A DNA stretch of 63,411 nucleotides, filler included, from Hausera hauseri (Eukaryota): NCBI GenBank assembly GCA_046269625.1. It is 11 parts of 11 records of this genome, joined end to end, with 100 filler letters (N's around TTAATTAATTAA, not from the genome) between each part and the next. Parts side by side here need not be neighbours in the genome. Positions count along the whole stretch, not along the records: positions 21,565 to 26,969 come from JBJURY010261510.1; positions 27,070 to 33,432 come from JBJURY010107320.1; 9 more parts are not named here. The stretch is one strand, 5' to 3'. Position 1 is the stretch's first letter, and the number at the start of each line of letters is the position of its first letter. Shown in pieces: positions 5,294 to 41,639 of the stretch. A model generated the notes under the pieces. It was not told the origin of the DNA. It saw only the letters and a program-made list of their open reading frames with translations, and ran no database searches. The translations under genes were made by a program, and so were the position numbers.

Positions 5294-5294
5294 T

Positions 5295-15200: not shown

Positions 15201-16703
15201 AAAATCTGGCCGCTGTTAATATTAATTCTTTTAGTCGGCGAAGGAACCGAACAAGCAGAGCGACCAAACAGTTTCTACCACAATATGGTAGCCAACTTGC
15301 TTGCAGCTAACAAGAATTTCATCTATTACGAAAATGCCGCAATGGTGCCCAACCATCTAAAAGGGCATACAGTGAATCAAAGAAGTGGCCTTATAATCAG
15401 GCAACAATCTTATACGATAAAACTATCCGATCTGGTTGATATTACTAAGAGAACAATAGCTATCTACATTTCAGTGGCCAAAGGCACTATTCAATTGAAA
15501 AGTAAGGCTAACCTAAATGAAATAACCGATACTCTCCTTGTCCCATCACCAACCACAATTAGGTTGGATGAAAAATTCATTAAGAATGTCGAACTAACGA
15601 TAAGGGTAGTAAATGAAGTCTACCCCATAATGTATATTGAAATCATTAGGCAAGAATCACTTCCTTCTGATGAATCAAAGAAATTCAATTATTCCATGCC
15701 AATCCCAGACGACACCCTACTGGAAAAGGGTATGTCATTTGAAAGATTATTGAACATACGCAAAGAAGATATAGTCATATTAGCAACGAACGTGGCATAT
15801 TTAATGGAACCAGTTCGACGATCGGAAGTGGCTCTTATAGAAATTACCATTCTGGACGTGGACGGTAAAACTATCCTGGACAAAATATTATGTCCGCGCG
15901 AAAGAATCGATAACTATAATAGCCATGTAACTGGCTTGAGAGAGTCAAACATAATAGGACAGATGGACCTCGTAATAATGTACCCACAAATTAAAAGCCA
16001 CCTTATGGGAAAAATCGTTGTAGGGATGAATGTATATTATGACCTCAACAATGCTCTCCGATGTAGTCACCACCTTGTGATGGGTATAAGAGATCTACTT
16101 CACCATCAAAAGGCTAACCCAAAACAGGAGTTTAATGCCAAATACATTTTAATGGCATTCAACAATGGTGTCTACCCCAAAAGAACGAAGGAAAGGGCAA
16201 AAGTAATCTTGGATATATACAACACAATCCCCGAATACAGGATTAAAGAATCAACACTTTCCACAACTAGCTTAACCCCAGCAGATAGCCCGCCAAAAAC
16301 CTTGGGTATGATGAAAATTCCCAAAATCAAAAATAAATCTATATCTCCATCCCAAGTTGCTACAAAAATAAATGATCAACCTTCAACATCCTCGCAAAAA
16401 TGCCTACCAAGTGAGAATGACCCACCAAAGGAAGTCTCGGCTTATTCGGCCAAATCTTCGACCGAAGTTAAAGAAATACAATGCGAAATGCCCGGATCAA
16501 CAGAATCAATAGTAATCGACTTAACAAAGAAAAGAAAATCATTTTCCCCCAAAGAGACAGTTACATTCAAACGAAGAATCAGAGAAAAAAACCAGTGGCT
16601 CCAGATTGACTCAGTCTGCTATAAACGACCAGATGGTTCTTATAAGATCTACCCTCTGAAGCCGAGGACGGCTTCATCTAAGGAGGGAGATGTTCAGAAA
16701 TAA
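5412..16703 (+). CDS. Single Gag-Ubl-Bcl2-Env-Pol-FN3/TM-exonuclease polyprotein (3763 aa)
   Basis: Uninterrupted ORF with CFACQKYGHMARSC, AIIDTGAS, YPLPRID, YVDD, LATDAS/ERELLA/YTDHKPL, H-H-C-C zinc motif, DILGP/LLTDQA/VERFN and YKGPY motifs. Confidence 0.95.
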   Translation: MRLSGQQNLQMSSSGLCQHRQQWHNGFTMDKFEDTPDQDYSEFLMQYHMYYESFAWTDELNIKIIPLYLKRIALSVYTQITDDDKADWANLKKSLEERLLADPSGKGRIGEFNRRCQGKGETVQEFACALQKLAQRAYVDEDTREDALLAQFCYGINKEIQNYIIVADPSTYKEAVSKARKIEINYERLENTKRPPRNEDKKMKSFQQKKNFQPSQNFQKFQKFPNQSGQQKKVTWQNQSQNTWQNQPQKSAMRKPMVNQDGQPLCFACQKYGHMARSCPMQGQSSQKKKNIDMIGNISDTDHEHETTDTEPEESIEKLQQKIRSKLKECKTNTIEEDEHKIAELKQLYLELKEQQICEERHKKTNENSIIAPVGRPKKVPASEPDTEKKKVKRKDRPLIQEEDLKTPSYSPSGSEESEGSKRSEGEQSVKIKRVRRKKVTESPQQIETPPVDLDQHGTEIVRQMMRYANQELIDGAQFRQDLSMLLTPTISHQQFADLLDLLLIHAADGNPHRNFVRYVIYRYAERVRLVRENPEVRITLQQYNQDFSVLKMKSLDNVATLKHKINETIQGELELRFYGRTLLDYETIYEVGMWENRYNPVCLALRQSEQEIIDEILAEVAQKDTQEAEPHYEAQRTEIGTNIPISEQIQTDKRGRGRPKGTTKLYQLKGRKARDDEVVRRLLTTEEEYDAANISLTMLLQTLLARMNPAFVEFNTNLQIPDSLMRNIRNEITKISEQFADIPTDERINEIQERDILSRMMGTGISRNKIMTAISYLLYKIIVMNGVNPNQEEIERNIEIATRALKANVEGWVKCRGGWINSLIQIQESTSAMYEQTENHPPRLQERQQHQQPDFDLSWLVKIIPILLLFSFIPKTHTIIAYDCSQAKEGPIYSLLDLEKCPYANPASLTTTTDREYYVYQESEFVRTKVRECFVRKNHFHFICGYWYRNSAIVEPTTPFEPLAISKRMCVEAFVTKQINIGSVRLKAQKGKITNKRIFVAGTIDKTGYCKGESYNINGEILDNIVAIEDYQVELREYDALFELESGKMMTFPECDYYNKECDTGESIMSYEVDKDQCRLALLRKGKFNETKGRMFKEEISKSRLDRVSDMVDTPTIAYSADPSEGMRFKIESDTKRCDQVVYRTNYKGIFLSTSEIKKAQRKIDKSEVKPHLYFDNKLDFIYHFQQENIYSMYREIILNDCKMNREIIRNRIYLSAITDGIIKDPAELPDAEGKFARTMGETLVTFECIRVAVKLRPIAECTMELPVWYKNQSRFLQPITRILLESAEKPYVYQNCTYTMSPAFRLSDNYWVRMPKKEQITPPRKISLINLKTEQQYKPLTELVKMGVYSEQDMENHRRMMMFPQQRQKVLTEMAMKVLSDHDGKANWENLMGPDYAQRIAKNIFATAWGWYMWFGQFNSGWLGFYYIFAFVKAILTMITKGYGIKQAAGCTWKIVYALIPSLASCFLIKQDAQWKQKNKNKNDSNDDEDIPPTKKVKPRPNPPSSTRKTWSLITARSKKRRTLLSDIPQMKRWNEYPMEQYQFITNDYVDVHYPSDMENYDPKHMKLTFYPSAPKEALITSIDGGKVIPRTVIWIDGHPITAIIDTGASASMISRKQLPESLKKKLLKPTEELTNVGAFGTKVQVRDLVKCETKVLNQKFEQEFRVADELVAEAILGCDALAKLKDTCIHLETQQLQPYKKVKNGKKDTVSVKEDVLIPARTEIVLKALVQGKDEGDVYIEPNINFMNKNELWIAHSIDNIREQQVIVRIANVSNKSKLLRKGTIIAYVYTIKDIGSNATEAIISTVQELSEFMERQRQKPRTECGQRFENEPLNKLKTHLNKNKKTILLVKTPINWPDYDLFGRESVLTDEEKEGIVKILEQYKNVFAIDEYDMGIIPVIKHEIKLKAGMETPIKKRPYRLNYDKREKAKEIIAEMKQYDIIRPSNSPWAAPIVMVQKKDGSIRMCVDYRALNEVTIDNTYPLPRIDEMLDKLKDKMLFTTLDLQKGFWQIEVQEEDKQKTAFVTSDGHYEFNRMAFGMKNAPATFQTAMDIITMDAPHIMCYVDDVIIASTDYKQHKEHLKDMLERCALLGIKVSLKKCCFARTKVDFLGHTVSREGINPQIGKINKIQDFPVPKTVRGVRKFLGLTGYYRKFVKDYQQIASPLHSLLQENSKLVWTQECQKAYQQLKDNLLAPPVLAYPNMSKPYFLATDASKVGIGVVLSQKDDQGQEHPISFGGRKLRKHERNYSTIERELLAIVYALEQYGQYLSETKPIVIYTDHKPLQWLKNHKNPNSRLMKWAMLLQPYNLKFEYKMGKANANADYLSRMPEDSGQEKDDLADKPGVIAAIWTITEQEKSLLQKQQNDEQIKEIKGYMQKKKIPNNINLYTHLTKFAENYEIKDEILYYNQKGKLVVVVPQEDIKLLLTQYHDGMMGGHQSVKRTLGRLKRKYFWYTMPNDVQEWCKSCPICATRKNTGSKIKVPLKPLECPPAPMEFSAMDILGPLPMTVNGNKYMLVFVDLFSRWPVVIPIPDQKAQTIAQAFVEEIVFNYGAPSKLLTDQAQNFTGEVMAEISKIFQILQLKTTPYHPQTNGTVERFNGILTNMLATMVNERQDDWDEYIKPCLFAIRNTIHPATKETPFYLMYLRDTHMPVDLELKTPVSHLKDMEYKELLEEKLGYVWDLASRHTKMCQKEYKARYDEKAKPHNFKPGDKIMLHTPLSKKGKTPKLNRPYKGPYTIQKVDETNIYLNRNKRNKIDPIKVHVNRCKQAPTESKIRSEGLSLPVMTLMMLCLITCTSAEPLDVEYKAVQVGKYPCIKIIANRNLTNDDYIPIHITKKWSTKVATSEHCSLYSGHSTHVCCGLSFGISYRIQYAIWRKTNNKWYKSYFSYPGSTHYFNEPYFLVAFYTKIMKNGPCVMAEPEAPITRYRTLEYQIENKTNKMVCRPDYQNPYLCCPITYDKEYTIYYWTTNDKKTWSKTSDGPEIMVKSPKMKTTTIISTRITTSPFTQKTMTNPVIEVKRIIKDLDIIIQSTTHSLIITVSDLKTTNVKFECFLHHRLVGEGIITPDEPTSACTFLKADTNYKVLITELDEDGQTLQVVKRKEKTSKELLITTRRVIKTTTTQKPKKIDKYLLIIIALSTSMLIMITLAPIIICYTKIRRRTQRTNDMINQLKLLRQNSLDESISDIDAPNNNEIRQAEKPGEPQRRTCPLRDTTVCLCTQVRDEAAKILATYMKHRYITKILAINKKQPKCKNFFVSKIWPLLILILLVGEGTEQAERPNSFYHNMVANLLAANKNFIYYENAAMVPNHLKGHTVNQRSGLIIRQQSYTIKLSDLVDITKRTIAIYISVAKGTIQLKSKANLNEITDTLLVPSPTTIRLDEKFIKNVELTIRVVNEVYPIMYIEIIRQESLPSDESKKFNYSMPIPDDTLLEKGMSFERLLNIRKEDIVILATNVAYLMEPVRRSEVALIEITILDVDGKTILDKILCPRERIDNYNSHVTGLRESNIIGQMDLVIMYPQIKSHLMGKIVVGMNVYYDLNNALRCSHHLVMGIRDLLHHQKANPKQEFNAKYILMAFNNGVYPKRTKERAKVILDIYNTIPEYRIKESTLSTTSLTPADSPPKTLGMMKIPKIKNKSISPSQVATKINDQPSTSSQKCLPSENDPPKEVSAYSAKSSTEVKEIQCEMPGSTESIVIDLTKKRKSFSPKETVTFKRRIREKNQWLQIDSVCYKRPDGSYKIYPLKPRTASSKEGDVQK
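7020..7230 (+). other. Ubiquitin-like (beta-grasp) domain within the polyprotein
   Basis: VRITLQ...DNVATLKHKINETIQGELELRFYGRTLLDYETIYEVGM matches the ubiquitin pattern DTIxxVKxKI...RLIFxGKxLxDxxTLxDYxI; the relative at 24055-25095 has YVRDVREWL...RFYFRGRILDELEQLIDVGI. Confidence 0.75.
7500..7885 (+). other. Bcl-2-family-like helical domain within the polyprotein
   Basis: BH3-like LMRNIRNEI, BH1-like GISRNKIMTAISY (consensus GxNWGRIVALFxF) and BH2-like VEGWVKCRGGW (consensus LxxWIxxxGGW), in the correct order with plausible spacing. Confidence 0.65.
7989..9830 (+). other. Envelope glycoprotein, chuvirus-like / herpes-gB-related class III fusogen
   Basis: Signal peptide WLVKIIPILLLFSFIPKTHT, mature start IIAYDC...YSLLDLEKC, Cys-rich ectodomain, GETLVTFECIRVAVKLR...CTMELPVWYKNQSRFLQPITRIL motif typical of chuviral-type glycoproteins, C-terminal TM segments. 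Confidence 0.8.
10180..13740 (+). other. Pol: aspartic protease (DTG ~10233), RT (YVDD ~11610), RNase H (~12040-12400), integrase with HHCC, DDE and GPY (~12690-13740)
   Basis: Canonical Ty3/Gypsy motifs and domain order; catalytic residues appear intact. Confidence 0.95.
13770..14890 (+). other. Second membrane protein: signal peptide, three FN3-like Cys-containing domains with a Thr-rich linker, TM helix
   Basis: SP LPVMTLMMLCLITCTSA; repeats ending CCGLSFGISYRI / CCPITYDKEYTI / CTFLKADTNYKV (FN3 LxPxTxY tyrosine-corner pattern); TM YLLIIIALSTSMLIMITLAPIIICY. Confidence 0.65.
15770..16240 (+). other. DEDDh 3'-5' exonuclease-like domain (REX4/ISG20 type), catalytic motif I degenerate
   Basis: IEITILDVDGKTILDKILCPRERIDNYNSHVTGL...IKSHLMGKIVVGMNVYYDL matches the REX4/ISG20 pattern; the expected DxE is replaced by LATNVA. 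Confidence 0.72.
16680..16690 (+). promoter_or_regulatory. Polypurine tract
   Basis: AAGGAGGGAGA immediately before TGTT; the relative on the minus strand has AAGGAGAGGGGAA|TGTT. Confidence 0.8.
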
Positions 16704-16932
16704 CATTTCGATTTACGGTTTAATTAACCGAATTTGTGAATTAATTAACATTTTGTTTTCAAAAACAATTTTAATTGATTTTAGACTATGGTTTATTTTG
16801 TTTTCGTGATCTGGTGTTATCTTTGTTTTTGTAAAAATTATTTTTATTCGGCTTCATTTTTGTTCTTATCCCTGATAAAGCCAGATGTATTTTTCATGAA
16901 AAATGCCATTTTTGTTGATTTCTAAAGAGGTA
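16691..16932 (+). repeat. 5' part of the 3' LTR (truncated by contig end); contains the ORF stop codon
   Basis: Starts TGTTCAG directly after the PPT; AT-rich and non-coding after the stop codon. Confidence 0.7.
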
Positions 16933-17032: not shown

Positions 17033-17600
17033 AGTTGAGCTAACTGCTGTGCTAATGTGTTGTTGTTGTTGGTAACAGCTGAGGAAATGACTGGTTGAGT
17101 GTGTACATGTAAAATATCGTATGTTTTGTCTGCCAGTTCAGCCAATTTGTCAAGAGTCGTCGAATATCCGACGACGGTAAGTAAGGCCGTAATTTTTATG
17201 GGCAATGTGTTCAAGATGTAACGTCACAAAAAATCGGCATTATGTTGTTTAGTTACGCCAAGTGTTTAAAGTTGAGCGAGTGAAATTGTAAGGATATCTG
17301 ACGGTTTTTGCGTTCCCATAGCATTATCGTTAAAGAAACGGTGAACTATAGATACCATGGATAATTCGGTAAGCTTTAGAACGGCGTTGTAAAGATGGGC
17401 GTATGGGTCGGGTTGCTGCAAGATGTCTAGTAAGTCATGAATGGACGTTTTTACTGTAGTCAGTAAAAGACAAGATAGGTTATGAGCTTTGGTTATCGGA
17501 TCAGTGATGTCGTTGCATTGTAGCCAAAACTGGTGGAAGTTAGGCCATGTTTTGCTAGAATTTTCTTGGTCTATAAAATATTCGGTAAAATGTGAGGGCA
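17033..17600 (-). pseudogene. Gypsy gag N-terminal remnant (DUF7041-like family)
   Basis: WLQCNDITDPITKA...QPDPYAHLYNAVL...MGTQKPSDIL...LP...TLDKLAELADK; homologous to 42440-42659. Confidence 0.65.
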
Positions 17601-18599
17601 TAGTATAAGTGGTTTTAAGCGAAAAGATAGGATCAGCGGAAGAAGTTTTGTTGGTTGATTTTGGGTAATAGACAACGGATTTATGTTTTGTAATGGCCTT
17701 ATCTGTTGTATCGTTGGTTGATGAAGGTAGCATGCCACCACGGATTCTGGGGTTGATGTCAAAGAGGAGGAAAAATGGAGAAAATGTGATGTCTCGAAAA
17801 CTCGTAAAAGTGAATCCATTGTTAGTCAGGTAAAAATCGGATATAAGTTATTGTGCGGATGTAGTCGTGAAAGTTGGTAAGGTGTATATGTTTTGTTAAG
17901 TATAGGGTATGTACCAATGTATTATTTAAAAAACAGAAAATGGAAAATGGTGGTAGGAGGTAACCGGATGGGCAGTGCGGCACCCCAGTACACCACAACC
18001 CGCGCCCCACAGTCGCCAGGCGAGTCACCGGGACCGTGGTTTCGCCACGACAGCGCTGATTCACCGGAGCAAAGCAGTCCGTCAGATAACCGAACCGCAG
18101 AGACGAAATTTATTTCCATGGTGGGATCGACGCACTGAAGTGCAGAATCTTCGTAGGCATTCGTTATAAAAGGATTCGAGAAAAATCAAGTGATGTGCCG
18201 AGAAATGTTCTGAAAAGTAGTCTTTTCCTTCGATGAACAATTTCTGTTGTTGAGAATTAAGAAAGGACGTCTTCCGTTCAGAGTACTTATTGAGTAGAGA
18301 AGTCGGCCTATTTAGCGGACTTATCAAATTATATATGTAAATAATTGGGGCTATAGGACAAAGTACCTCCATGTACGGAACATTGTCAATTGAAAGAAAA
18401 TGTAAAACAATAATAACAGTTAATCTAGATACTTCGTTTGGCCAAATATTATGCTTTAAAGATAATAATGTGTGTGCTTTAGACCAAAAGAAGAGCTTGA
18501 ACATAAAAAAGGAAATATTCTGAATTTTATTTGACAAAATTTCGTTCCAAAAACATGTACTCCTGGTGATATAAGTTGTGTTAATCACCAAAATATTTG

Positions 18600-21464
18600 C
18601 ATATACTGTTCGGCACCATTCTTCAGCTCGACGGTAGTCTTTTCCAAGTGAACGAAGAACAGAAGTTATTTGATCTGAAGTTTTGTACAAATTTTCAGCA
18701 GCTATAAATAATTTAAGTTCTTCTTCTGTTATTCGTCCGGTTTTGTTTTGTACGTTGATCTTATAAACTCGAGAGAAACTGAGTTGACGATTTTTTAACA
18801 TTAACGTCGTCTTCGATTTGGATGCATTAATCATCAAAATAATTCCATTGAGGGTATTTTTGAATGTTTTGAATGAGATTTTCAATTCATCCGATGCTCC
18901 TGGGAGTGGTCCCTCCGAGCTATTCGTAGGTTTCGAATAATATGAGTAATTTGAACCGTTAAACAAAACCGAATCAACTACTTCAATACTCTCTTTTGGT
19001 GATTCTAATTTTATGATTTCGGATATTTTTGATATCGAACGAGTTTTTTCGTCGTTCTCTTTGATTCGTTTCAACAGTTTCGTTACTACGGACTCGTCGA
19101 TAACTTTGCTCCAATACAGGACAGACAATCTGATTCTATACACTTCGATTTCATCAATAAATCCCGTGAAGGTCCTTGAGAAAATTAAGGCTTTAGGAAG
19201 CAGTTTCGAAGGTCGTTTGTTTGATACATATTGACACAAAATATTAACCAGATTCGACCAAATTAAAAGGCCTTCATCATCATCCCAAGACAATTCAACG
19301 AACGTCCATTTCGCCGTTATTCGAAAACTGGTAAAACCACTCGAAAACATGATTAGATTTTTGGATGTTTTCTCGGAAATTTCTACTTTAAAAGTATATT
19401 TCAAAACAATTAGTCGAATGATATTAAAAATGAAAATGTTCGACTTTAGATCGGTAAATCGTATCCAAAATCTAATGGAAAAGCAGTTCTTACAGCCAGT
19501 AACAATCTCACTGAAACATGCGGAAGTACCAGTGAAAACTGGGCGTTGTTGAAAGAAACAAATAGACCAACAACACCTACGGTTTTGAAAACATTCGTAT
19601 TTTCAGTAGATCCGAAATTATGATTCAATTGATAATGAAAATCGTCCATATGTTTCATCTCATAAGCTAAATTTGTTCAATTTGCAGCAACGGATTCAAG
19701 GTCATCTACGATAACAGATGCACTTTGGACAACATGGTTAGGATAATGTAACCCAACAACCAGTTGCGTGTTCCTATTACCAGAATTCGTGAACTCCGCT
19801 ATAGCAGTCATTACATGGCCCATCAAGACACCATTCACGTACACATTCAAACCATCATCAAAACGGCATCAATCATCAAAAACGTGCCACTGTAGAACTT
19901 TAAGGACCATCTTCCCAGTTAATAACCAAAATTTGTTGCGAGTTTTCAGCTGAATGATGAGATTCAAAATTACTTCCGATCATGAGGAGTTGATTAAATA
20001 AATATATCTGCTGTGGTGTTGCTAAATTGTCTGGCCGGAACCGAAGACGAACGAGTAGTTCACGACGACAGTTTTCAACATTAATAAAACAATCGGGAGA
20101 CCAGTCATGTTTACTACTACGAAACAAGGACCAAAATTTTCTAGACTGAATCCCTCGCCAAAATTTGTTGAAATTACTTTTCCGTCATTGATGGCTATGT
20201 TAAGGTCATTGATAGGATTAAAATTTGTGTTGAATGGTGCAGAATGCAACATTCCATCATTATTCTGCCAACTGCTGAGTTCACTATTAGACAGAGATAT
20301 TTCCAGGACACAAGAAGAATGGATTCTTGACTTTAATGGAATAATTTTTGAGAAACTGTTTAACATCATCAAATCAATTTGGTCTGTTCGTGAAAAATAA
20401 ACAGCATAGACACTCGAAAATCGGACAATTAGCGTTTTCTCTATCATAGATGATTTATTAATAACCATAAACCAGTAAGAACTATGTGAGGAATCTGCAT
20501 GGTTAAATGCAATCGTTAAACAATTACTGAGATAAATTACAACATTATTGAACTCGAGTAAACATTTGTAGTTTGCAACTATCGATCTGTTATGTAGTTC
20601 AACATTTAACTCCCAAATGGATCCGTTAAAGATTGTACTAGAGTTTGTAGTGAATATAAATCGGTCAAACTCTACGTTCGTCAATTCACGTAAATTACCA
20701 AAGACAATGTATTTCGATGATATAAATGTAGGTATTATTTCTTTTAAAACGGTGTATTTATTTGTCGTAGCAAGAAGATTCGGATCGAGATAAAGAAAGA
20801 GGTTTGATCCATAGACCAAATCTGCCAACAAGGTGTGTCTTATTAGTTGACTTTTATTTTTTAAGAAGACGTAACGAATCCAAAATTGATATCTCAAAGC
20901 TTTACGATGAAAAATATTTTTGAAGCGCGTTCGTCCTTTAGGTGGCAACAAATCCAACCAATTTCCTGGTCGCATATTCAGTCCTTAATTAAATACCGCA
21001 TCGGTAAATTGTAGCGGCGTGGAGGAATTGATAATTTCCATATGTTTATCCGTAATGGATATGTCTTCTTTAAGGTCGAATTCGCAAATAACATCGTCAG
21101 TTGGCTTAGTACATTTTCCTTCGGACACTGGCAAAACCGTATACCCTGCATCGAAAAAGCGCAAACGCAATCAGAACTGCACGCCGTGCAAAAATCAGAT
21201 TATGCAAATCGTACGGATTTCCAGACGGAACAACCGCAACTCTGGAACACGGTATTTCTTATTAACATAACAACATAACCACAGATGATTTTCGATTTAA
21301 AAATTGTTTGATTACTACCGAAATAAATCAAATCCCCTTCGATAAAATACTCAAGAAACAGATCATTATCATACATAAAATTCGGCCGTTTAAATCCAAT
21401 AAACGTTTCAATCTCATCGGGAAGAAATGTTGAATATACCACGAGAACGTACAAATCCTCGGTA
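18600..21464 (-). pseudogene. Laminin-G-domain extracellular protein (neurexin/CNTNAP-like), fragmented by frameshifts
   Basis: Collinear beta-rich ORFs with LamG-like motifs (RLRFFDAGYTVL; DELKISFKTFKNTLNGIILMI; LNVYVNGVLM; LLVRLRFR); no clear introns. Confidence 0.45.
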
Positions 21465-21966
21465 NNNNNNNNNNNNNNNNNNNNNNNNNNNNNNNNNNNN
21501 NNNNNNNNTTAATTAATTAANNNNNNNNNNNNNNNNNNNNNNNNNNNNNNNNNNNNNNNNNNNNACGAATGATTTTGTTGTTGATACAAAAAAGTTTTGT
21601 TTTAATAATAGTTTTTTTCTTATTTTGAAATTTGATGTCAGCCATGTTTTTGATCTTACGAGTCAATTGAAATCTCTAATAATATTTTGAAGTAAATTTG
21701 ATTTTCTCCATTTTGGATTTTGCCGTAATTCAAATTAATTTACTGTGCATACATTTTCTATTCCGCATTGTTTCGTTAATCGGAGTGAACAAATATTCAT
21801 GATTTTTGCAGCAGCTTTTGAACTTTTACTGTTATGGTTATGAAAATCGCAGCCTCAGTTATTACCCTTCATGCTTTTTCTGGAACAAACGAAAATGAAC
21901 CTTGTTGTTGTCTGTTGCAGATAGATAATTTTCATTGTTTACTTGGCTGTGGATGGAACTCAAATT

Positions 21967-24900
21967 TTAACAAATAATTTCTAAATTGAGTAGTAAAATG
22001 CGCCAAAAAAATCGATACTGTTCTTCTATCACCCTGTGATGTTCATCATTTAGGAGTTTTAGCTGATTCTGTCGGAAAAGGTAGCCTCGGATGACCACTT
22101 TAATCATTTGTATTAGGAAATATATTGCTAAAAATCCGGATGCAGCTTGCCCAAAAATTAAAAATCTTCCCAAATTTTCTAGAGTATTTCTGCGGTTACT
22201 CACTGATAATGATTTACGCCAAGTAATGATTCTAATTTTGATTGATATCGAGTATCACGTACTACGGAGGCTATGACTCGATTCAATTCGTGTGTCCATT
22301 GTCGCGGAAAAGCGAGAAATTGTCTAAAAGCTTCAATTTTCTTAGGCCTTTCGATGACGTGTCTTGAAATTTGTCGTCTGTAATTCCTTTTGCGAGATTT
22401 GTTCCTGTTAATTTATGTGGAGTGACAGTAATGCCTCCATTTGGCAAACTAACCCAATCTGTTTCACTACACCTAAACATGGGTTCTCCTAAGCTTGCTT
22501 TACAATCTTTAAGGATTCTTGGTTCAGTTGCGTTGTCTAATAATACTCTGGTGAGCGGCGTGGCTAATCTTGGAGTAATCTGGTAAATAACTAGAAGTTC
22601 CTTCATGCAACGTTTTTCCTCAACGTTGATTGGTACATTTCTTTTCTCACATTCGTAAGTTAATAGAACTTCACTGGTAACTCGATCAAAAATTCCTTCC
22701 CTCATAGGAATTATTGGGGATGCAAATTCGGGATTAGCGTAGATAAGAGCCTGTTTTGTCCTCATGATTTCCATATCCAATGTACAACCATTGGTTATCA
22801 TTTTATGATATAACTCGGTTATTCCAACTTGTCCTTTGTAATAGAAATAATCGTCTCTGTTTTTCAGGTAGTCCTCAATCCAAATATCCTGCGTTTCTAG
22901 CTTGCAAGTCTTCTCATTTATTTTTGTTTCTGGGACGAAGAACGCTTCATAGTTGGTAGCGAACATCAGTACTTCAGAACAAAGGGATCATTTCTTTCTT
23001 AATAAATTTTAGTCCATGCTGGTCGGAGATCAATATATTAGGTGTTGGGTGTTCTGCTACATCCTTGCGTGTCTTTGAGTCTAAATATCGTTTTCCGGTA
23101 GTTTCATTCAATTTTAATTTCTTAATTTTGATGAAATTACAGTTTTTCCAGAGGGAGGTTCCCATATTATGACCGAATTCTAAAAGCACAGATTCCGTCT
23201 TGTAAATGGTATTTTTGATTCTCGGTATATAGTTGATTCTCGACACTATGGAACATTGTTTTCTGTACTCGCATCTCCGATTCATAGAAATCTACGACCA
23301 CTACGTTTGCTTTTAATCCTTTTCCGGTGTCATATTCTGCTCCATTACAATGTCCGTTATGCATGTCTAACCTTCTAACCACTACTTGATATGCTCTAAT
23401 TATCTTTCCTGGTTGCATCTCTAGTTCCATACTATCCCATTTTAATCTCCTGGTTTCCTTGGCCTGCTTACAATGCTGGCGTTCAAAATTCATTGGGATT
23501 GGAGGAGTTGTTGGTTTGTTTATTGAAGAATGTCTATGCATTAATCTACAGTGGAAAATGTTACGAGATCGTTTCAACATACATTCCATTCCGTCCAACG
23601 ATATTAATTCTTTCTGTTGATAAAACAAGTAACTTTTTTCCCTTGTTTCCAGTTTATGTGGTCTGGCATCTTTGCATACTTCTAAATCCATTAGAGAATA
23701 TTTCTGTCCTAGTTTAAACTTATCTCAGTCGTAGACAGTAACAGCACCCATATGCTTTATTAACATCATCGAAGTAAGCAAGCTGATTAAGAAATTGGAT
23801 TTGTTTTTCCCGTTACTATTATCCGTCGTTGTCAAATTACGTAGCATATCTTCGAGTCTATTGCTATTTCCGGACCGTTTGTCTTCTTCCTTATCGAATA
23901 GTCTCGACCAATTTACATCGCATGGTAGCTTTCTCGCCGCTCTTCGCGCTAAGCTCGTAGCTGTATTAATTTCATTCTCTCGATTACGGTTTATTTTGAT
24001 AGCTAAGTACAGTAATACTTTTCTTAATTCTTCAGTGGTGTTTTCCATCATGATTTATTCGATTACTGATTCATCGGTTAAGTTACTTTTCGATAATATA
24101 AAACGTGAACTTCTCATTATCCTAGCTCCATTGAATATCGCCCTCTCTTTATTGTCTAATGTGTCGCCTCGAAGGCTTGAATAATTTACAATACGTACTA
24201 AATTCTTCATTAATTCGTTTAATTCTTCACTGCCCGTGCTGAGGGTAGGAATCGACATCTGTCTAAATTCTCTAATCAATTCGCCATTATAGTCAGCTTC
24301 TTCTCGTGTCTTTTTAGGTCTACCGACTGGGCGCCTCTGTCGTGGAACATTGGTTATCGTTTCACTTAGTGGCATTGAATTCTTGTTGTATTGTTCCTTG
24401 TCCTCATCCGTTTGTAAATACTCAAAATACATTGCAGCGTCTCGGACTACCATAATTTGTCCTACGCATTGCTTTGTCTTGGCATTACGCATGGCTTCTT
24501 CTTTTGTCTGTTTATTAGCTATTATTGCTACTATTCGATTTGTTTCGTCAGGGATAATCCCGACATCTATTAGTTGTTCTAGTTCGTCGAGTATTCTACC
24601 TCTAAAGTAAAATCTATAATTTAACTCGTTTGTTCCACCGTTATTTAATAACCATTCTCTTACATCCCTCACATAGGAATATGTAGTTAATTCACATTTT
24701 TTTTCGTCCATCCACTCGGGCGATATCATTACTTTTATCGTTACCTCAAGTTTAGCCCTCAAGATTTTAGCGTATTTCCTTATCAAAAGTTCCGGCACCA
24801 TGTTATAAATTGTGTTCTCACTAGATAATTTAGTCAATGTCGGAATAAGTTGTCTTAACTTATTTTCAGTGATGTTTACGTTAATTAGTTCGATTAAATC

Positions 24901-26969
24901 CCCTTTAGTTAGCGCTGAATCCAGGAGCATCCCCACATTCAATTTCCTGTTCTGCGGACATGTTTTTATCTCATTTAGTTGTACTGGAGTCACGGGTTTT
25001 TCGGCAATCATTGCGTCTAAGTATGCATCCCATTCTGGTTCGTTTCCAACATCTGGAAGTCTATAGTCCACTAAGGCTGTATTTGTCCTTTGCACATTTT
25101 TCTCAAATTTTTTTCAATCTGGGTTGTATTTCCTTCATCTGCATAGTTCGGAAGCCTATTTCGTTTACACAGGCATTTTGAATCATTTTTAGTAATTCGC
25201 CTAATTCATTAGAATTGACGAGTTCTTTTTGGTTATAATCTGCTAGTTCAATAATTACATCTCTTTGCCATCTTTGTACAAATTCTCGCTTACTTTTGAT
25301 TTTTGATTCTGTAAAGGCATATTTATTCCGCTAGCGTTCGAACTCTTTTGCTAGTTCGTCTAGTCTTGATGCTCTTTGTTTTGTTCTGATGCACGTTTCT
25401 TCTACTTTTTGTAATTTAGGCACCAATTGCCTCATCTTCTCATCATTAATCTCCGCCATTTTTACCAATAAGCAGGCTAACCCATACATTTCGTTTATGA
25501 CTTTTGAGTCGGGATCCATTGCATCCAACAATTTCTTTACGATCTTAGATTCCTAAAACTAAGATGTTGGGCACCTCTTATCTTTGTCAACTTTGTATGG
25601 AAATTCTGCTCTGATGTGGCCATCCATTCTTTTGGTTTCTGCAAAAATTTTATTGAGTCCGTTAAAGCGACTCGATGTTGCGGACAAATGTCTAGGGTTT
25701 CAATGTCTTGGGCAGAGATCTAATCGATAGGTTTATCTGTTAAATGTTGAACTCCTTCTAGCCGGACGTTTCTTAATTTTGAATAGAAATTGCAAGTCAT
25801 ATTTTGCTTTTCTGTAAAATTCGTCTCTTCGACCATTTTATAGATTTCTTTCAGTATTGTTGCTTCTTGTTTCTTCATAAAATTTAGCCGTCATAATGTT
25901 TCAAATTGAATTCAGATATCTATTTCTGCCTTTATCGTGTCTAAATTACGTGTGCTTTCTTCTAATTGTTTCTTGATAGAGGGCTCGCTCTCTGGGAATT
26001 CCTTCTTACGGTTTTCCACTAATTTGCTTAATTGCATTACTAATTCGGACCATTCCGAAAACTGATTGGCGATTTTTGGTTTTGACATTATAGCCTTATT
26101 TAGCATCTTATAAGCATCTTTTAACTCATCATCTGGCCCTTTTACGAAATTCATAATCCGACTGACATAACTAAACTCGTCCTTATATTCGGCCAATTCT
26201 ACGATACAAGCCTTTACTACGTACTAAGTCTCCTCGTGGTTTGGGGACACGATTTGGTTTCTCAAGCTGTAAATCTGCGCTCGCTTTTCATTTGCTATTT
26301 TGATTCAATTTTCTAAAGTCGTATATCGTTAGGGTTCAGCGAAGGCAATTTTATCATTTCCATTAAGGGAGGAATATCTACTGGGTCTACACCCAATATT
26401 TCTAAGTCGGTATTACTTCGATTGCTAACTGGTCTTTCTCTAAGCAGGTTAATTATTGCATAGCGAATTTCATCCATCATACGTTCTAAATTACGGACTA
26501 TTCTCTTAAGTTTTGGGTTTGTCTCTAAGGTAGATAATAACGTCTGAGCCTTAGTGATTTTCACATCATTACTGTCTTCATTTTTGCTCCATCCTTCCGA
26601 AAATTCGACTCCACTTTTAATCCATGATTCTAATTCATGTTTCCATCTTGACAGTGTTTCAGGTAATACCTCTTCGGGTTGTCCTAGGTCGATTGCTTCA
26701 TCGTGTTTTCCTTCAGTGCATAATTTTAGACTTTTATATAACCTCTCAGCATACTGTTGCACTTTTCCGGATATATGTACTTGTTCACTAATCTGCTTAA
26801 GCCTTTCTAAATTTCGCTGTAGTATTTCTGGATCGTGACATCTAATTCTCATTTCCTTTAACTCATCGGCATTTTTCCACGAACGTCGAACTTTCCATTT
26901 TTTGGATCGAAATCATCAATATTTTCCGTTTCTCCCTCACTAATGGGAAGCGGGCAGATCTCGTTAATT
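21967..26969 (-). pseudogene. Decayed relative of the giant element: helical cargo - Ubl - AT-hook-like - Bcl-2-like - signal peptide - class III Env
   Basis: In-frame ORFs 24055-25095, 23725-24051 and 23167-23691 are separated only by point stops (AVTVYD* = IIAYDC; YSLMDLEVC = YSLLDLEKC); 22283-22966 SEVLLTYECEK...CMKELLVIY...ATPLTRVL; TM at 21967-22203. Confidence 0.85.
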
Positions 26970-27069
26970 NNNNNNNNNNNNNNNNNNNNNNNNNNNNNNN
27001 NNNNNNNNNNNNNTTAATTAATTAANNNNNNNNNNNNNNNNNNNNNNNNNNNNNNNNNNNNNNNNNNNN

Positions 27070-27250
27070 ATGATAATGGCAATCTTCTGATAATTTCTTT
27101 TTCATCACGACCTATTGCTGCACTTTGAGATTTGTAACTTTTGAAAAAAGAGAACAATTTTTCTAGATTTCCGTTAAATTTTTCTACATTTATATCTAAG
27201 TGTTAAATAGTATATGCTCGTTTTTCAGTTGTCTGTCTTTCTGTTGACAT
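27070..27250 (-). pseudogene. Gag N-terminus downstream of LTR+PBS
   Basis: MSTERQTTEKRAYTI*HLDINVEKFNGNLEKLFSFFKSYKSQSAAIGRDEKEIIRRLPL aligns with MDKFEDTPDQDYSEFLMQY...WTDELNIKIIPLYL of the intact element. Confidence 0.6.
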
Positions 27251-27420
27251 TTTGCCTATTTCTAAATGAATTATTTTATCAAGGATACTATCTTCTAGTT
27301 CGAGTAATAATTCAATAAATTTCTTTTTAAATTTTCGAGTCCAAATTTTGATTCAATGAATGTTCAATAATAAGTTGATAACAGATTCAATAAACACTAA
27401 ACACTCCTCCTGCCTTAATT

Positions 27421-27433
27421 CGTTCAAGCGCCA
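27421..27433 (-). promoter_or_regulatory. PBS-like sequence (tRNA-Lys-like TGGCGCTTGAACG)
   Basis: TGG start two bases after the putative LTR end; resembles the tRNA-Lys PBS TGGCGCCCGAAC. Confidence 0.5.
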
Positions 27434-27435
27434 AA

Positions 27436-28006
27436 TCTTATTTCAAGATTGATTGAGGGTAGATCACAATTCAATTTCCAAAAATTGAACAAATAAGATA
27501 AAGTAAAACACTTATTTGAATAGAAATGAACCAAATTTACAAGCTAGTGTGGCTTAGCTATTTAATATAATTCACTAGAGAAATTAATAGGAATTCTGCT
27601 ACTAATCGTTTTATAAAAGATCTCTAATTCCGCTTTTAACTCCGGAGTACCGGGATAAAACTTGTCTTCTCTCAATTTAATCACCAATTTTTATACCAAA
27701 TTTTTAATTAACCTTGTAAATTCTGACCAATTGAATTCAAAAGTCTTTTAGTAATAATTTTTATTCCATTAAAACAAAGTTCAATTTATCATTCTCAGTA
27801 TTATTCTGTACTTATAATGAAGTACAATTATTTTTAACTTAATTCTAAAATTATCATATAGATTTTGATCAAGTATTTGTAATATTCATATTAATAGATT
27901 TTGCCATGTCATTTATTATTTTAAACAATGTCTCAAAATATCTATTTGTAATGTATGGATTTCTTAAAAATGTAAGTTATCTCTATTTTATTATTTTTTT
28001 CTAACA
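27436..28006 (-). repeat. LTR (~570 bp; TGTTAG...ATAAGA) preceded by a PPT at 28007-28019
   Basis: Minus strand reads AAGGAGAGGGGAA|TGTTAG; bounded on the other side by a PBS-like motif and a gag start. Confidence 0.62.
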
Positions 28007-28199
28007 TTCCCCTCTCCTTAAAGGGATCTATATCTCGATTATTATTAGCAGCAAAATTCCTCGTCAATAAATCAATAAAATAATTTTTTATTTGTACATA
28101 ACCCTTTCTAATACATGCAATATAACAAAATAACACAATAACGAAAGAAAAATTAAGAACAAAGAGAAAAGCGAGTAATCAAAATGTCAGTCTTAAAGT

Positions 28200-31100
28200 T
28201 CAAATAGTAAAAATGTTAATTTCTTCTTCTTTGTCTGTCTTCGATCTTCCTTCTTCCAATTCAGTTTCCGATTTAACAGTTTTATTCGGGTTTTTCTTCC
28301 TCATAAGGTCCAAAATTTCTCCAGTATCGCCAAAATGGAAAATGTATTCATCGTCATTGAATAAATGGTAAATAGAATCGTCTGGTTTGCTGGTAATCAT
28401 GGTTTTTATAGGTATCCATGTAGTCAATCCTTTTCTCACCACTAGTAATCCCGACAGATCATGTGCACTGTTCTTGGGTACAATTTTAGTTATTATCTGC
28501 GAAGGAATAACCAATTGACACTTAATTTCTGTAATGGTAGCGGACCTTTCTGGGTTCATTTCCATTGTAAGATCAAAGATATCCGAATACTTTCTATATG
28601 GAATAAGTATTTTCTTTTCACCCAATATCTTTGTATATTGAGCAGCTATCAATTTATTTCCAGTACTCTCCCATTTCATTATCTGTTTTTGACTGATTCC
28701 ATTCTGAACTGACACATTTTTCTCTTTTAGAATTTCATCCAGAACTATTGGAATAATTAATCCATTCCCAGTAAAAATTAACAATATTCCATTGACTCGT
28801 ACTTTGTTTGTTACGTTTTCAGTAAGAGCATACAACAATCTTCTCATTAATTCATTGCTTTTCATCGGCTCTGTCTGTGTTTGCATTTCTCTTGAGTTTA
28901 TCTGGCTCCATTTTTGTTTTCGCGGTTTGATTTCTTCTACTTCATCGAACATGATCTCTAGAATCTCACAATCGATAGTTTCAAATTCCTCTTCCTCCAA
29001 TTTTTCTTGTATTTCTATTTTCTTAGTTTCTTTACCTTTAGTTAAAGTAGCATTAGTACCATACTTCAAATTAAACCCAATTGTATATTGTTTTTCACGA
29101 TTCAAAACATCTTCAAAGTCATTTATATTGTCATTTAAGTCCGGTGGAATCCAATCACATGTTCCAATTAGTTTTTAGTGTGCGGTAATAGTCAACTGTA
29201 ATCTTCCTCTGGTTGTACTAGGAAATCGATTCAAACTCAATACATCGATTAATTGTTTAAACGTTTTGACTTTATTGTCCATAGTATTTTCTACATTTTT
29301 AATGGGTCAAAAATTGCACAAGTCTTATTTGTTGAAATACATAGTGCTTTAAAAGTTTTATGGGCTTCCAGAGCCACTATTTTGTAACCCAAAATATACT
29401 TTTCAATTTCTGATTGTGCCAATCTAGAATCCGTACCATTTTCAATTTTGTCCCAGCTTACTCCATGCCTGGAGTTATTCAAGTTGTGTATAGCTCTTCT
29501 GGGAGCTATTATTTGGTCAAATAATATTTCTCCTTTCTTTTCTGCAATCACTATTTCAATTGGGAGCGGGATAGATGTTCCGTCGAATTTGTGTCCATAA
29601 GCAAATGATACTGACAGATATCTTGTGCTCCCTGATTTATTGGTATATAAAATATTTGGTTCCATTGACATCTCTTTTCCATTTATGGTTAACGGCGTTA
29701 TTAATGAAAGTTTTTGTTCACTTCTAATAATTTCAATCATTCCTATGTTGAGGATTTCTTTGACAATGAAGCGAGTTTTTGTCTGATCTATTGAAAAGTT
29801 TACTTCACATAATTCTTGACAAGATATTGTTTCCATAGAATATCTCTGTCCTTTTCTTTTTCTGAAAATGGCCATTATTCGTCCTATTGCTCATGTATTA
29901 TTATACCAAGATTATTATCGGCCCATTGAGGCAACCTAAAAGTGGTACCTGCATTAAATACCTTGAAGGGAAAATTTTCTCGGTTCCTCATCTCGCCATA
30001 TTTAAGGGTGTTAGGTATTTTAGAAACACTAGTTACTCTTTCGGAGTTATTGTCCAAATGTTCTATAATTCTATCATAAAAGGAATATGTCATATTTTTG
30101 TCCGCTGTACTGAATCTTCTTATCTGTTCTTGATCATATTGTCTATTGATTGGAATATTTTCAGGTATCTTGAAAATTTCTTTCCCTCCGATTTTTGGGG
30201 TATCCTGTTTCATTTGACTGGTACTTGGCATATAACTTTGTTTTTCGCTCGATTCCGACATACCAAAAATTTCGTCTTTTCTTGAACGTTTTCTGAATTT
30301 ATATCTCGCCAGGTTTGTTATGATTGGTTGACCAATCAGTTTTCTTTTCCAGCTATAAGTCATAATTAGGTGAAGTACTAAATCCAATCTAAATATCGCA
30401 ATATATGTACTCAAATTCTTTATCACTTCTTTAAAGCAGTACAGAGTTTCAGTATGAATCTGAGTCAAAACTAATATAGGTATAACACCAAATGTAGTGG
30501 TATGGTCTTCAACTTTGTTTTCTTATCACTTATATTCTCGTTTTGAGTTATTATTTCTCCTGTCTTATTACTTCCTTTCTCTTCATTTATTGGTAAGCAA
30601 TGTTGGTTTCCCCCAATTGTGGAATAATATAATTCACAATGTTTTTTCTTGCGACAATGTTGGGTTTTTGGCCAAGCTATAACCATCATAATAATTATGC
30701 CTATACTTATTATCACGAATATCCACCAGTATTTTGTAAAATACGTTTCAATAATTTCCGGTGTAATTGTAGTTAATTTCCATTTTTCGTCATCATTGTT
30801 GTACCTTATGTGACGATACTGATCTATTGCTGGTTGTGTTTTTATTGCTACTATCTTTGAATTATCTGAAGTTTCTATTCTCACCAAGTAATTGGTGTCA
30901 GGCGTTAATTTTTCGCAGAAATTTCTTTTATTTATTTCGTACTTGATAGTAACTTTTTCATGGGAACCTGTACATGTTACTGTGATGTGCCTTTCGTTTA
31001 TTATGTTTTGCAGTATTACTTCAATGCGATCCATATAAGGCGTTAATTTGAATTTGATGGGGAAGTCTTTGATCCATTTTCCATAAAATATATGTTTATG

Positions 31101-33432
31101 TAATTTCTGTTTCGACGTAGATGGTCGTTGGTTTTGTATTGACTCCCGATCTGCCCTACCCTTATAGGTGGGTGTAGTCCATAATGTCGACGTTATCATC
31201 TTGACCATTGAAGGCGGTGCGGTAATACGAGGCTTAGCAAAAACCGGAATAGGTATGTTTGGTTTAACTGCGAAAAGAATAGGAATACAATGAGAATGCA
31301 CTATAACAGAATGGCTATTTTCCATTGTTAGATATGCATCTAAACGGATTCTGTACCAAACGTATGTATAAAGTGTGCAGCATGAACGAGTATCATTCCG
31401 CTTGAGATAACAATAATGTGGTTGTTTTACCGATGTAGAAATGGGGTCAAGCCATATGCTGATTTCGAATTTAATGGGTAATAGCTGCGTAGTGCGAAAA
31501 TTCATAAAAGGTGGTTGTCTTGTAATGTTGATACTAGAAAATTCAGTATCATGTTCTAAGAAGTGAGCGATAAAAGGATTACGCTAAAAACATGGCAGGT
31601 TTCCAAGAAATGCATCTCCTGATAAGTAAGAACGCAAAGAATCATGTTTGGCTCCCAAGAAATAGTATCGGTATTATTCACTTTCAGTATTACATAGTAT
31701 GTATACGTCGTATCGTAATTGATGGAGCAGCAGATTTTGTTAAATGTTTCAAAAATTGAGCAAATTGAAGAGATATTATACTGTGATATAAGGAAGAAAT
31801 CAACTTTATGGTGTATTATTACCGGCGAGTGAGTGCGAATGCAAATACTGGGTTTGTTTGTGTCAATTTTGATAATAGTAGCGCGTGTAATCAAATCAAT
31901 AAATGGTGTAGCTATTGCGTTGGTTGTTGTTATAAGTATTACGAATGCGAGAAAAATGAGAAGTATGATAGCCAAGTATCGGCTCTGAACATAATGAACA
32001 GAATAAGTTTCTAATGTATGCATCTCGGAAGTCTGATACACTGCTACTTTAGGCTCTTTTGTTGTGGATGATTCTAGGTCTGTTTCGCGTATGAAGTCGT
32101 TATATGACGTAGGTGCTCGAGTTACTCGTTGGACAGACACAGCCTCATATTTATCAGGTCCTTTTTCAATAAAAAGCGTTTGTGGACGCACGTCAACAAC
32201 TTTGTACGGTCCTTGACGGGTACGGGTTAATTTTAACGATTTGCCTTTCTTTACAGCGGTGTAGTGAACCATTATGTAATGACCAATTTTATAAGTATGC
32301 GGTCGAGCTTTCTTGTTAAATTGCTTTTATATCCCGCTCTATATTTTTCTTCAAACTGTTTCGCTTCGCGTTGAAAGTATTCAAGTCGTTTTAGTAAGAT
32401 CTGGTACTGATCATCCATGTAATCACTAGTTAACAAGGATGACGGCAGCAACTCCGTATCCAATGGTAATAACGGCAATCGACCAAACATTAACTCAAAA
32501 AGTGAATGATTGGTACTTTTGGTAGGCGTAGTATTAATTGCAAAGGCTGTGATTTTCAGATGGTTATGCCAATCCTTTTGATCATTTGCTACCTTTGTAG
32601 AAAGAATACCTTGAATAGTACAATTCATTCTCTCAAACATACTATTGCACTGTGGATGGTATGATGTGGTTAACAAATGTTTGCATTGAAGTATTTTTGA
32701 CAATTTTTCAAAGTATTCGCTAATGAAATATGGTGCACGGTCAGTTAACAACTGTTTCGCGGTGCCAAATACAGCAATAATTTCGTAGAAAAAGGCTTCA
32801 GCAAGTGTGCTACTCGTCATATTCTTTAATGGCACTAGTATAACATAGCGAGAATAGTAGTCAACCAAAGACAGAATGTATTTGTATCCTGAGTATGAAG
32901 CTGGGAAGGGTCCGGAGATATCCATTAAACACACTTCCATTGGTCTCCGTGCTTCTGGTAAGCTTCCTAAAAATGGTTTTACACGAGATCCTCTATCTTT
33001 TTTAGTTGCACATATTTTACACGAACGTACCCATCCTTCAATATGCTTATTCATTTGAGGCCAATAGTATTTTGCAGTTATTCGCTTTAAAGTCTTATTC
33101 AAGGACGGATGTCCAGCTAAATGCGAATCGTGTTCTTGTAGCATGACAGCCTTGATGGCCGGTGTGGGTACAAGGATCAGTTTTTTTTCTCCGACTTTCA
33201 GTCGTAAAATGCCATTTCCAATTTCAAGGTTCTCTCGGTTCTTTTCATAAAATTTTTGGATATGACTTGATACTGGATTATGTAATTGACCGTTGATTAA
33301 TTGTTTAACTTGAACAATAAAGGAATCCTGATTTTGTAAAGTCTCTAGGTTTCTCACCTGAGCTCGACGTTGCTCTTGTAACATATCGTTAATGATTTTC
33401 TCATTCAATTGTTTGTCATTTTCATTATCTAA
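28200..33432 (-). pseudogene. Decayed relative of the giant element: integrase(GPY) - SP - 3 FN3-like - TM - unknown domain - DEDDh-like exonuclease - C-terminal extension
   Basis: Integrase 32272-33408 (HDSHLAGH, CKIC, DISGP, LLTDRA, FERMN); RQGPYKV; SP YLAIILLIFLAFVILITTTNA; LTPDTNYLVRI; TM YWWIFVIISIGIIIMMVIAW; IEIVIAEKKGEILFDQIIAPRRAIHNLNNSRHGV...YILGYKIVAL. Confidence 0.85.
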
Positions 33433-41400: not shown

Positions 41401-41639
41401 TCCCATATATTCTCAGGAAGAAGATCAAAATAAAAACTTACGAAGGCCTAACCGATTACTTCTTGGATCACCGTCACTTCCGACTCCATCGAAACAATTG
41501 CGACCAAAGTCAAGTCCTACGTCACCTAAGTCTTGTAACAATCTTCCTACAGCTACACATTGTTCAGGGCACTCAACTCCGATATCTTATTGCTCGACCA
41601 GTCCCGACGAAATAACACAAGGTAATTATGACAGTTATT

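Follow-up and report, generated by a model that had tools for sequence, protein, structure and literature searches.

Two contigs of the Hausera hauseri assembly GCA_046269625.1, designated B (21565-26969) and C (27070-33432), very probably contain defective copies of Ty3/gypsy LTR retroelements from lineages deeply diverged from the intact element A, all three likely belonging to one compact, Burro-like clade of enveloped flatworm elements with a probably ancestral cargo order. Positions are given along the window, that is, the whole stretch of 63,411 nucleotides analysed, in which 11 parts are joined by N linkers; these linkers set the boundaries of B and C, which the first-pass annotation had placed correctly.

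Elements compared and overall architecture

The reference element A encodes an intact polyprotein of 3,763 codons (5412-16703, plus strand), and its joints are bridged by contigs of independent runs. Two further elements were used: L002, an intact related element from an independent metagenome, examined without the first 2,186 bases of its record so that gag lies outside the examined part, and P0050, a relative of A from another assembly with 75% identity to A from gag into Env. The host is likely a flatworm, judging from Env motifs compared by eye. No RNA record was listed for A, which has no bearing on expression.

In both A and L002 a single reading frame encodes Env, with preceding cargo and signal peptide and a following anchor, then protease, RT, RNase H, integrase, a second signal peptide, FN3-like repeats and another anchor, and polypurine tract, LTR end and primer-binding site are present; Pfam matches place protease, RT, RNase H and integrase in Ty3/gypsy (Metaviridae) order in each of the two. 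Env was found between gag and pol in A; gag precedes Env in P0050 and Env precedes pol in L002. The cargo of L002 differs in detail, with no AT-hook motif, two repeats, two protease domains and the exonuclease encoded as a separate, catalytically intact gene; the cargo of the family is not fixed. In another element, L005, the repeat protein is encoded upstream of the exonuclease gene. Word-index protein searches with the front cargo and Env found no full-length relative among proteins of 2,069-6,586 residues, a further search of this type gave one match among 6,742 candidates, and no relative turned up in three scans of viral contigs.

Front cargo and Env of contig B

The features of B described here are on the minus strand. 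The upstream part (24930-26969) has broken reading frames and no match to gag or any other family, although the helical-domain profile weakly indicates a second copy of that domain near 25258-25145 (iE 0.033). It is followed by the helical domain and ubiquitin-like (Ubl) domain (24496-24927), detected by a profile built from intact copies (iE 1.7e-8 at 24927-24496) and by alignment to A (23% identity, z 9.5) and to L002 (24% identity, z 10.4), with 0 of 300 shuffles scoring as high in either comparison. The Ubl domain of A, the counterpart of that in B, has a ubiquitin-like fold (probability 1.0 in Foldseek; Z 9.7 in VIA, with an rmsd of 2.4 across 71 residues), and that of L002 matches PF11976 weakly (E 0.018). 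Modelling of the front cargo from a single sequence was unusable (pLDDT 35) and a four-row model resolved the Ubl domain only. The pattern of the helical domain hinted at a CARD/death-fold, a reading that was dropped for lack of Pfam or PDB support.

An AT-hook-like motif (24313-24336) occupies the same slot as in A; the six-frame translation of the window (124,778 residues) contains it just twice, once in A and once at 24336 in B. Next comes the Bcl-2-like slot (23860-24240), located by position and interrupted by an in-frame stop. This slot aligned in none of the three pairs (z 0.4 for B-A, -0.4 for B-L002 and 1.8 for A-L002) and gave no Pfam match in B or L002; in A the Pfam match (E 0.0032) is weaker than the curated cut-off, neither a PDB sequence match nor an Atlas match was found, and the model was unusable (pLDDT under 50). 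Since the slot aligns between no pair, the name Bcl-2-like denotes a position.

A likely Env signal peptide (23728-23800) was placed by hydrophobicity directly before the Env start; the slot is moderately hydrophobic, its 13-residue mean of 1.92 being below the hydropathy cut-off used for other segments. The gB-type (chuvirus-like, class III) Env (21970-23727) is present as pieces with stops and frame changes, and these match Pfam Monjiviricetes_fusion (PF24664) with E values of 2.1e-12, 1.2e-12 and 3.7e-4. Env of this family is also present in A and L002; the Env of B is 31% identical to that of A, and 31-33% across A and L002. Its membrane anchor was located by hydropathy at 22161-22111. Spacing is conserved, the start of the Ubl domain and the first Env cysteine being 339 codons apart in B, compared with 349 in A and 393 in L002. 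The sequence past Env (21565-21966, no strand assigned) contains no protease and gave no tblastn match below E 0.7 against the three polyproteins, and the copy appears to be truncated after Env. The earlier claim that B repeats the cargo of A in the same order was therefore borne out for the helical/Ubl block, the AT-hook motif and Env, moderately for the signal peptide, and not for the Bcl-2-like slot, which does not align. The annotation had also missed that B stops after Env without a protease, and that about 1.9 kb at its start match no family.

Integrase, rear module and LTR of contig C

All features of C are likewise on the minus strand. The integrase (32137-33432), comprising H2C2, core and C-terminal part with a frame change near 32300, was identified by Pfam (E 2.8e-19 and 8.4e-13) and is 37% identical to that of A and 34% to that of L002. 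A second signal peptide is predicted after it (31925-31975, hydropathy 3.15), in a slot shared with A and L002. Three FN3-like repeats follow (30822-31900, frame change near 31570), recognised by alignment and profile, with bounds at about 31900-31640, 31583-31260 and 31085-30822. The first aligns with the second repeat of A (z 7-8.5), the second with the first of A (z 3.6-5.5), and the third was recovered by a profile made without C (iE 3.4e-5). The assignment of these repeats to FN3 is by homology to those of A, whose third repeat has an ESM Atlas FN3 score of 0.94 with all ten best named matches in the fn3 clan; the post-integrase repeats gave no Pfam fn3 match and no PDB profile match.

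After a predicted membrane anchor (30675-30725, hydropathy 2.98), C contains the start of an unnamed domain that precedes the exonuclease family-wide (29977-30114, iE 0.015, in order), and then an ISG20/REX4-like DEDDh exonuclease domain whose first acidic motif is replaced (29312-29635, iE 5.9e-15); both were found with an independent profile that contained no window sequence. The exonuclease domain is 30% identical to that of A, and its nearest solved relatives are ISG20 and ISG20L2, i.e. DEDDh enzymes. In the family alignment, 14 of 27 rows retain the D-E-D-H-D set; the catalytic residues are lost in A and C and intact in L002, and the domain is likely to be inactive in A and C, judging from these residues. 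The order integrase, signal peptide, three FN3 repeats, anchor, unknown domain and exonuclease proposed for C largely held; integrase, at least two repeats and exonuclease align significantly and in order. The summed contig depth drops over the rear module in A and C; depth is unsuited to ranking the parts.

Downstream of the exonuclease there is an open frame of 324 codons (28203-29174, from the ORF list) with no convincing Pfam match. The polypurine tract (28007-28019) is similar to that of A, as had been noted (A, 16680-16690; C, 28019-28007). It was overlooked that C continues past the 3' end of the element, through a single LTR of 571 bp with an imperfect terminal inverted repeat (27436-28006, delimited from polypurine tract and primer-binding site), a Lys(UUU)-like primer-binding site (27422-27433, a 12-mer compared with the tRNA end) and a gag start with one stop (27071-27250), so that the primer-binding site lies downstream of the cargo. 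No second copy of this LTR was found in the window. The gag start aligns with the gag of P0050 (z 4.4, 0 of 300 shuffles as high); its alignment to A is not significant. Compared by eye with the tRNA ends available from the supplement of PMC13524379, the primer-binding site of C has two mismatches to a Lys(UUU) end, and that of A three to the Met ends and two to an Asn end. Of the two different types reported earlier, the Lys-like site follows the downstream LTR of C, and the Met-like one of A is ambiguous and unproven.

Many sister copies of C have a DNA identity of 85-95%; run X2, possibly the source of the window itself, contains 2,791 records matching C, 1,984 of them below 95% alike. Among 40 rows listed out of 593 differences in total, the 20 that lie in the integrase frame fall 6/7/7 at codon positions 1/2/3.

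Origin of the two copies

B and C are considered dead copies because of their stops and frame changes and, in C, because substitutions are spread evenly over codon positions. Both are divergent and decayed, as had been described, and the low protein identity among copies was confirmed (22-37% pairwise). Given that the sisters of C are 85-95% alike in DNA and its integrase is 37% identical to that of A, this low identity is owed to divergence of lineages and not to decay. Significant alignment between copies was obtained for the helical/Ubl block, Env, integrase, at least two repeats and the exonuclease, and was not obtained for the Bcl-2-like slot. The cargo order was likely inherited from a common ancestor. 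The diversified clade with a common cargo order that had been proposed is upheld, backed more by L002, P0050 and the bridging contigs of four runs than by B and C. Its cargo can be called old in a relative sense only. Counting against the clade are the Bcl-2-like slot, the differing cargo details of L002, the absence of gag and pol from B, the absence of RT from both contigs (C has integrase as its only pol domain and B has none; an LTR with polypurine tract and primer-binding site is present in C and there is none in B) and the exonuclease tree, in which C forms a very long branch placed without resolution. The similar distance of B and C to A and L002 allows them to be parts of one element; no sequence joins them.

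A pool of modules swapped among gypsy lineages, with the common order arising by repeated exchange instead of from an ancestor with the full set, is improbable. It would suit the separate intact exonuclease gene, two repeats and missing AT-hook motif of L002, the lack of alignment in the Bcl-2-like slot, and the reported sharing of extra genes between retroelements in rotifers (PMC5408684, available part). It is opposed by the order and similar spacing, which are kept in three lineages each for front and rear block, and by the like ranking of Env and integrase, in which A and L002 are closest to each other (42/37% in Env, 49% in integrase) compared with B or C. That B could be a stray Env-bearing viral fossil or a host-captured piece without link to a gypsy polyprotein is very unlikely: B does lack gag and pol, stops after Env and begins with 1.9 kb without family match, and isolated fossils of chuvirus-type glycoproteins are common in arthropods (PMC10084718, available part), but its helical/Ubl block and AT-hook motif stand upstream of Env in the frame and spacing of A and L002. 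Hardly credible at all is an artefact of assembly or pattern reading. Pairwise identities of 22-37% and several individually non-significant single domains might raise this suspicion, which is refuted by L002 and the bridging contigs; independent profiles and P0050 also argue against it. Contigs of four runs bridge the joints of A, those in X1, X3 and X4 spanning, with 0-4 differences, the Ubl-Bcl-2 slot, Bcl-2 slot-Env and Env anchor-protease joints and also integrase-repeats-unknown domain and exonuclease-LTR. Because public contigs bridge these cargo joints and L002 shares the order, A is not misassembled, in agreement with the earlier view. Descent of B and C from diverged lineages of one Burro-like clade is the favoured explanation.

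Comparison with published elements

The published parts available to us describe Burro (GYPSM1) as giant gypsy-like planarian elements with the order Ubl, BCL-2, Env, protease, with decayed copies in Dugesia japonica too (Arkhipova and Yushenova 2019, PMC6431247). As in Burro, a single polyprotein of A includes a Ubl/SUMO-like domain and, downstream of it, a mononegavirus-like Env, both lying in frame after gag and before protease; the Ubl family matched weakly by L002, PF11976, is that of Burro. The BCL-2-like motif of Burro has a candidate counterpart in A that is alike in position and under the Pfam cut-off. Unlike Burro, A has an internal region of about 11.4 kb, compared with up to 25 kb, and one zinc knuckle instead of two or three, and no MATH, BIR, ankyrin or dUTPase Pfam match was found in A or in the examined part of L002. 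The available part of the Burro description mentions neither an FN3 protein nor an exonuclease downstream of integrase (PMC6431247).

Also similar are the GAG-ENV-POL errantiviruses of HSV/gB type from Platyhelminthes, Smed_errantivirus_1 to 6, of about 14.5-18 kb with flanks and 1-215 copies (Chary and Hayashi 2026, PMC13524379, available part). A resembles them in gene order, Env class and element size, and the six printed Env domains, compared by eye, contain the motifs of A in the same order. In the available main text, exonuclease, ubiquitin, Bcl, fibronectin and Burro are not mentioned, and no primer-binding site is assigned to the six elements (PMC13524379).

An exonuclease ORF3 is found in the Vesta/Juno LTR elements of bdelloid rotifers (Rodriguez 2017, PMC5408684, available part), which, like the present elements, are of gypsy type and have an additional gene for a 3'-5' exonuclease at their 3' end. 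That enzyme is DEDDy (RNase D-like), whereas the one described here is DEDDh and ISG20-like and is preceded by a further domain at the N terminus; in 13 of 27 rows its catalytic set is lost. The Anakin elements have captured a chuvirus glycoprotein, and thus share the Env class inside an LTR element, but belong to the BEL/Pao superfamily and not to gypsy; the available part of this arthropod study reports no clear capture of a chuvirus glycoprotein by Gypsy (PMC10084718).

The front set is already published, for planarian Burro and for GAG-ENV-POL errantiviruses, and the rear set is apparently new to print; no published description of the rear module was found, and bioRxiv supplements, figures or Grohme 2018 may contain one.

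Proposed function and significance

By what is known of retroelements and membrane proteins in general, the polyprotein would cross the ER membrane twice. Cleavage by signal peptidase and by the protease of the element would set free Gag, Env and Pol, the Ubl/Bcl-2-slot cargo on the cytosolic side, and a second membrane protein of type I; reverse transcription from a tRNA primer would then copy the RNA for integration. An anti-apoptotic protein of Burro has reportedly been studied functionally; a literature search found no such work. The rear module likely consists of a second surface protein and an RNA-trimming enzyme that is inactive in A and C. The chances are about even that the FN3 protein would act at the surface as the fusogen's partner in attachment and that the exonuclease would trim RNA or, with its acidic residues lost (A and C), only bind it, blunting host RNA surveillance. 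Distinctly more tentative is the wider reading that a clade-wide FN3-repeat membrane protein might be the attachment partner of a gB-type fusogen, in a two-protein entry like that of large enveloped viruses, with the ISG20-like domain repeatedly converted from a nuclease to a domain that binds RNA and suppresses the RNA defence of the host.

B and C alone add little; together with L002 they turn one odd element into a clade-wide design, and the front cargo indicates that the Burro layout reaches compact elements too. Intact and dead exonucleases within the family offer a natural comparison for the role of this enzyme, and the second surface protein, if true, would bear on the choice of target cell by enveloped retroelements of invertebrates.

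Env and front cargo in contig B

The cargo that contigs B and C, two defective relatives of the intact element A, have in common with A is real and mostly as the first-pass annotation described it, its Bcl-2 and Met-type primer binding site (PBS) claims being unproven. Contig B (21565-26969, minus strand) is read as a broken element copy, in which three Env pieces match the Monjiviricetes-type fusion glycoprotein family of Pfam, as A does, with identities of 31% to A and 32-33% to L002, an independent intact metagenome element. A helical domain and a ubiquitin-like (Ubl) domain were located upstream of this Env in a single frame with two stops, and this block can be aligned for each pairing of A, B and L002 (22-24%, z 9.5-10.4, 0/300 shuffles) and is detected in B by the profile of the intact copies (iE 1.7e-8). 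Both Pfam (E 7.5e-4) and the fold (Foldseek probability 1.0; VIA Z 9.7, rmsd 2.4, 71 residues) confirm the Ubl label in A. Among 124,778 residues, an AT-hook-like motif was found only in A and B. The order Ubl/AT-hook/Bcl-2-like/SP/Env annotated for B holds for the helical and Ubl block, the AT-hook-like motif and Env, and is unproven for the Bcl-2-like slot, which aligned significantly in 0/3 pairs of A, B and L002. Pfam matches to this slot, weak and below cut-off, were limited to A and its close relative P0050 from another assembly, and neither the PDB and Atlas searches nor a predicted structure lent it support; one tryptophan near its end lines up across A, B and L002, which is suggestive only. 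Contig B stops after the Env anchor, without a protease, and no match was found for its first 1.9 kb.

Integrase and rear module in contig C

Contig C (27070-33432, minus strand), also read as a broken element copy, encodes an integrase that shares 37% identity with A and 34% with L002; after it come a signal-like hydrophobic segment, three repeats and an anchor. Repeat C1 is clearly homologous to A2 (z 7-8.5), C2 moderately to A1 (z 3.6-5.5), and C3 is clear by profile (iE 3.4e-5, or 2.4e-4 when the profile contains no row from the window). These repeats are named FN3 because of a single Atlas result, a score of 0.94 for the third repeat of A; Pfam and PDB profiles gave no such match.

A search with the tail of A retrieved 46 proteins at E <= 0.001 among 1.84 billion representatives, of which 26, selected largely because they span the unnamed domain as well as the exonuclease, were aligned with A. 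The 26-protein profile locates in C the motif of the unnamed domain at iE 0.015 and, next in order, the exonuclease at iE 5.9e-15. The closest solved structures of the exonuclease are ISG20 and ISG20L2; its D-E-D-H-D set is kept in 14 of the 27 rows and lost in 13, A among them, and the first acidic motif is lost in C too.

A 324-codon frame with no convincing Pfam match lies 3' of the C exonuclease and is followed by a purine tract resembling that of A, as annotated, by a 571-bp LTR and a PBS, and then by the start of a gag gene. By this series, C joins two copies, the 3' part of the first running into the 5' part of the second. Either the copies lie in tandem or an LTR has been collapsed; we lean towards the tandem arrangement, inferred from C being mutated. 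Under the rule of 12 bases with at most 2 mismatches (PMC13524379), the PBS of C fits Lys(UUU) by eye, and that of A, compared by eye with the listed tRNA ends, misses the Met ends with 3 mismatches and fits an Asn end with 2. The two sites differ, as had been proposed, with C Lys-like and the Met-like assignment of A unproven.

Relatives in metagenomes

The metagenome scan yielded 12 loci from 40 pattern matches. The open frame of L002 (at least 3,006 codons) encodes the helical and Ubl block, a helical slot, a signal peptide, Env (36% to A), two protease domains, RT, RNase H, integrase, a signal peptide, two repeats and an anchor; 3' of it come two separate units, a 222-codon frame and the gene of an exonuclease whose catalytic set is intact. 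The aspartic protease domains are in tandem (polyprotein residues 1279 and 1457), each with a catalytic motif. In L005 the exonuclease gene is preceded by the repeat protein, and the other 10 loci share with A the exonuclease gene only. Extra short frames, coiled-coil-like by eye, were observed between repeat protein and exonuclease gene in L002 (9189-9857) and L005 (1773-2207 and 2669-3061, alike).

Assembly of the intact element and other parts of the window

The window consists of eleven contigs separated by N linkers. Contig A (4316-16932) contains a single 3,763-codon frame with Pfam matches to a zinc knuckle, a Monjiviricetes-type fusion glycoprotein (E 8e-85), protease, RT, RNase H and integrase, in Ty3/gypsy order. 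Every cargo joint is spanned by single contigs with 0-4 differences, and 54-91% of the words of A are present in ten runs from ten studies; misassembly of A is excluded, as the annotation had argued. Over the stretch that runs from gag into Env, P0050 and A share 75% identity.

Ten runs, each labelled as a different organism, contain most of the element (5412-15400), which is compatible with a passenger organism in many samples. The two LTR portions of A (4750-5293 and 16691-16932) share no sequence, and three of four runs have hardly any coverage of 4737-5157. The contig start (4316-4750) is GC-richer, with an 18-bp inverted repeat (4421-4438/4719-4736), and the 34-bp motif that ends it recurs at a GC-richer/AT-rich boundary in contig 1 (1762-1795); start and motif are probably a separate high-copy repeat. 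The AT-rich region 1800-4215 has broken frames and by eye the look of a decayed retroelement, with no significant matches to three polyproteins.

Attractin-like gene pieces at 39291-41773 (kelch propeller, E 1.1e-7; EGF, E 4.7e-11), in long frames with few stops, could be a retrocopy, a pseudogene or a gene whose introns are very short. Open frames of 193, 506 and 320 codons at 17266-20984 have no Pfam match and are laminin-G-like by eye only. A diverged repeat of about 1 kb, 74-87% alike, is common to two contigs in opposite orientation (56564-57806 and 60361-61419). CpG is depleted (observed/expected 0.38-0.68) at 46001-52000, 54001-58000 and 60001-63411 and undepleted in contigs beside these and in the element contigs; a mix of two organisms is likely.

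Known systems, proposed mechanism and divergence between families

Planarian Burro elements are described as carrying, between gag and protease, Ubl and BCL-2 and an Env in frame (PMC6431247), and PMC13524379 lists flatworm elements of the GAG-ENV-POL gB type, where the six Schmidtea Env rows carry by eye the motifs of A. Element A falls outside strict Burro, from which it differs in size and number of zinc knuckles and in its lack of MATH, BIR, ankyrin and dUTPase, and is therefore called Burro-like. No published description of an FN3 protein or DEDDh module after integrase was found, although supplements, figures and Grohme 2018 may contain one. With the observed domain order and hydrophobic segments, a single polyprotein would cross the ER membrane twice, and its processing would yield Gag, the cytosolic cargo, Env, Pol and another membrane protein; particle entry and cargo roles are likewise putative.

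Run X2, from which the window itself may derive, has 2,791 records on C, covering all 30 bins, 1,984 of them less than 95% alike; X1, X3 and X4 cover 21, 9 and 7 bins. Differences in the C integrase frame are spread over codon positions 1/2/3 as 6/7/7 (20 of 40 listed rows, 593 in all), an even distribution expected of mutations gained after insertion. Record counts and codon-position spread thus indicate that C is a dead member of a family with many copies, and its low identity to A reflects a deep split between families.
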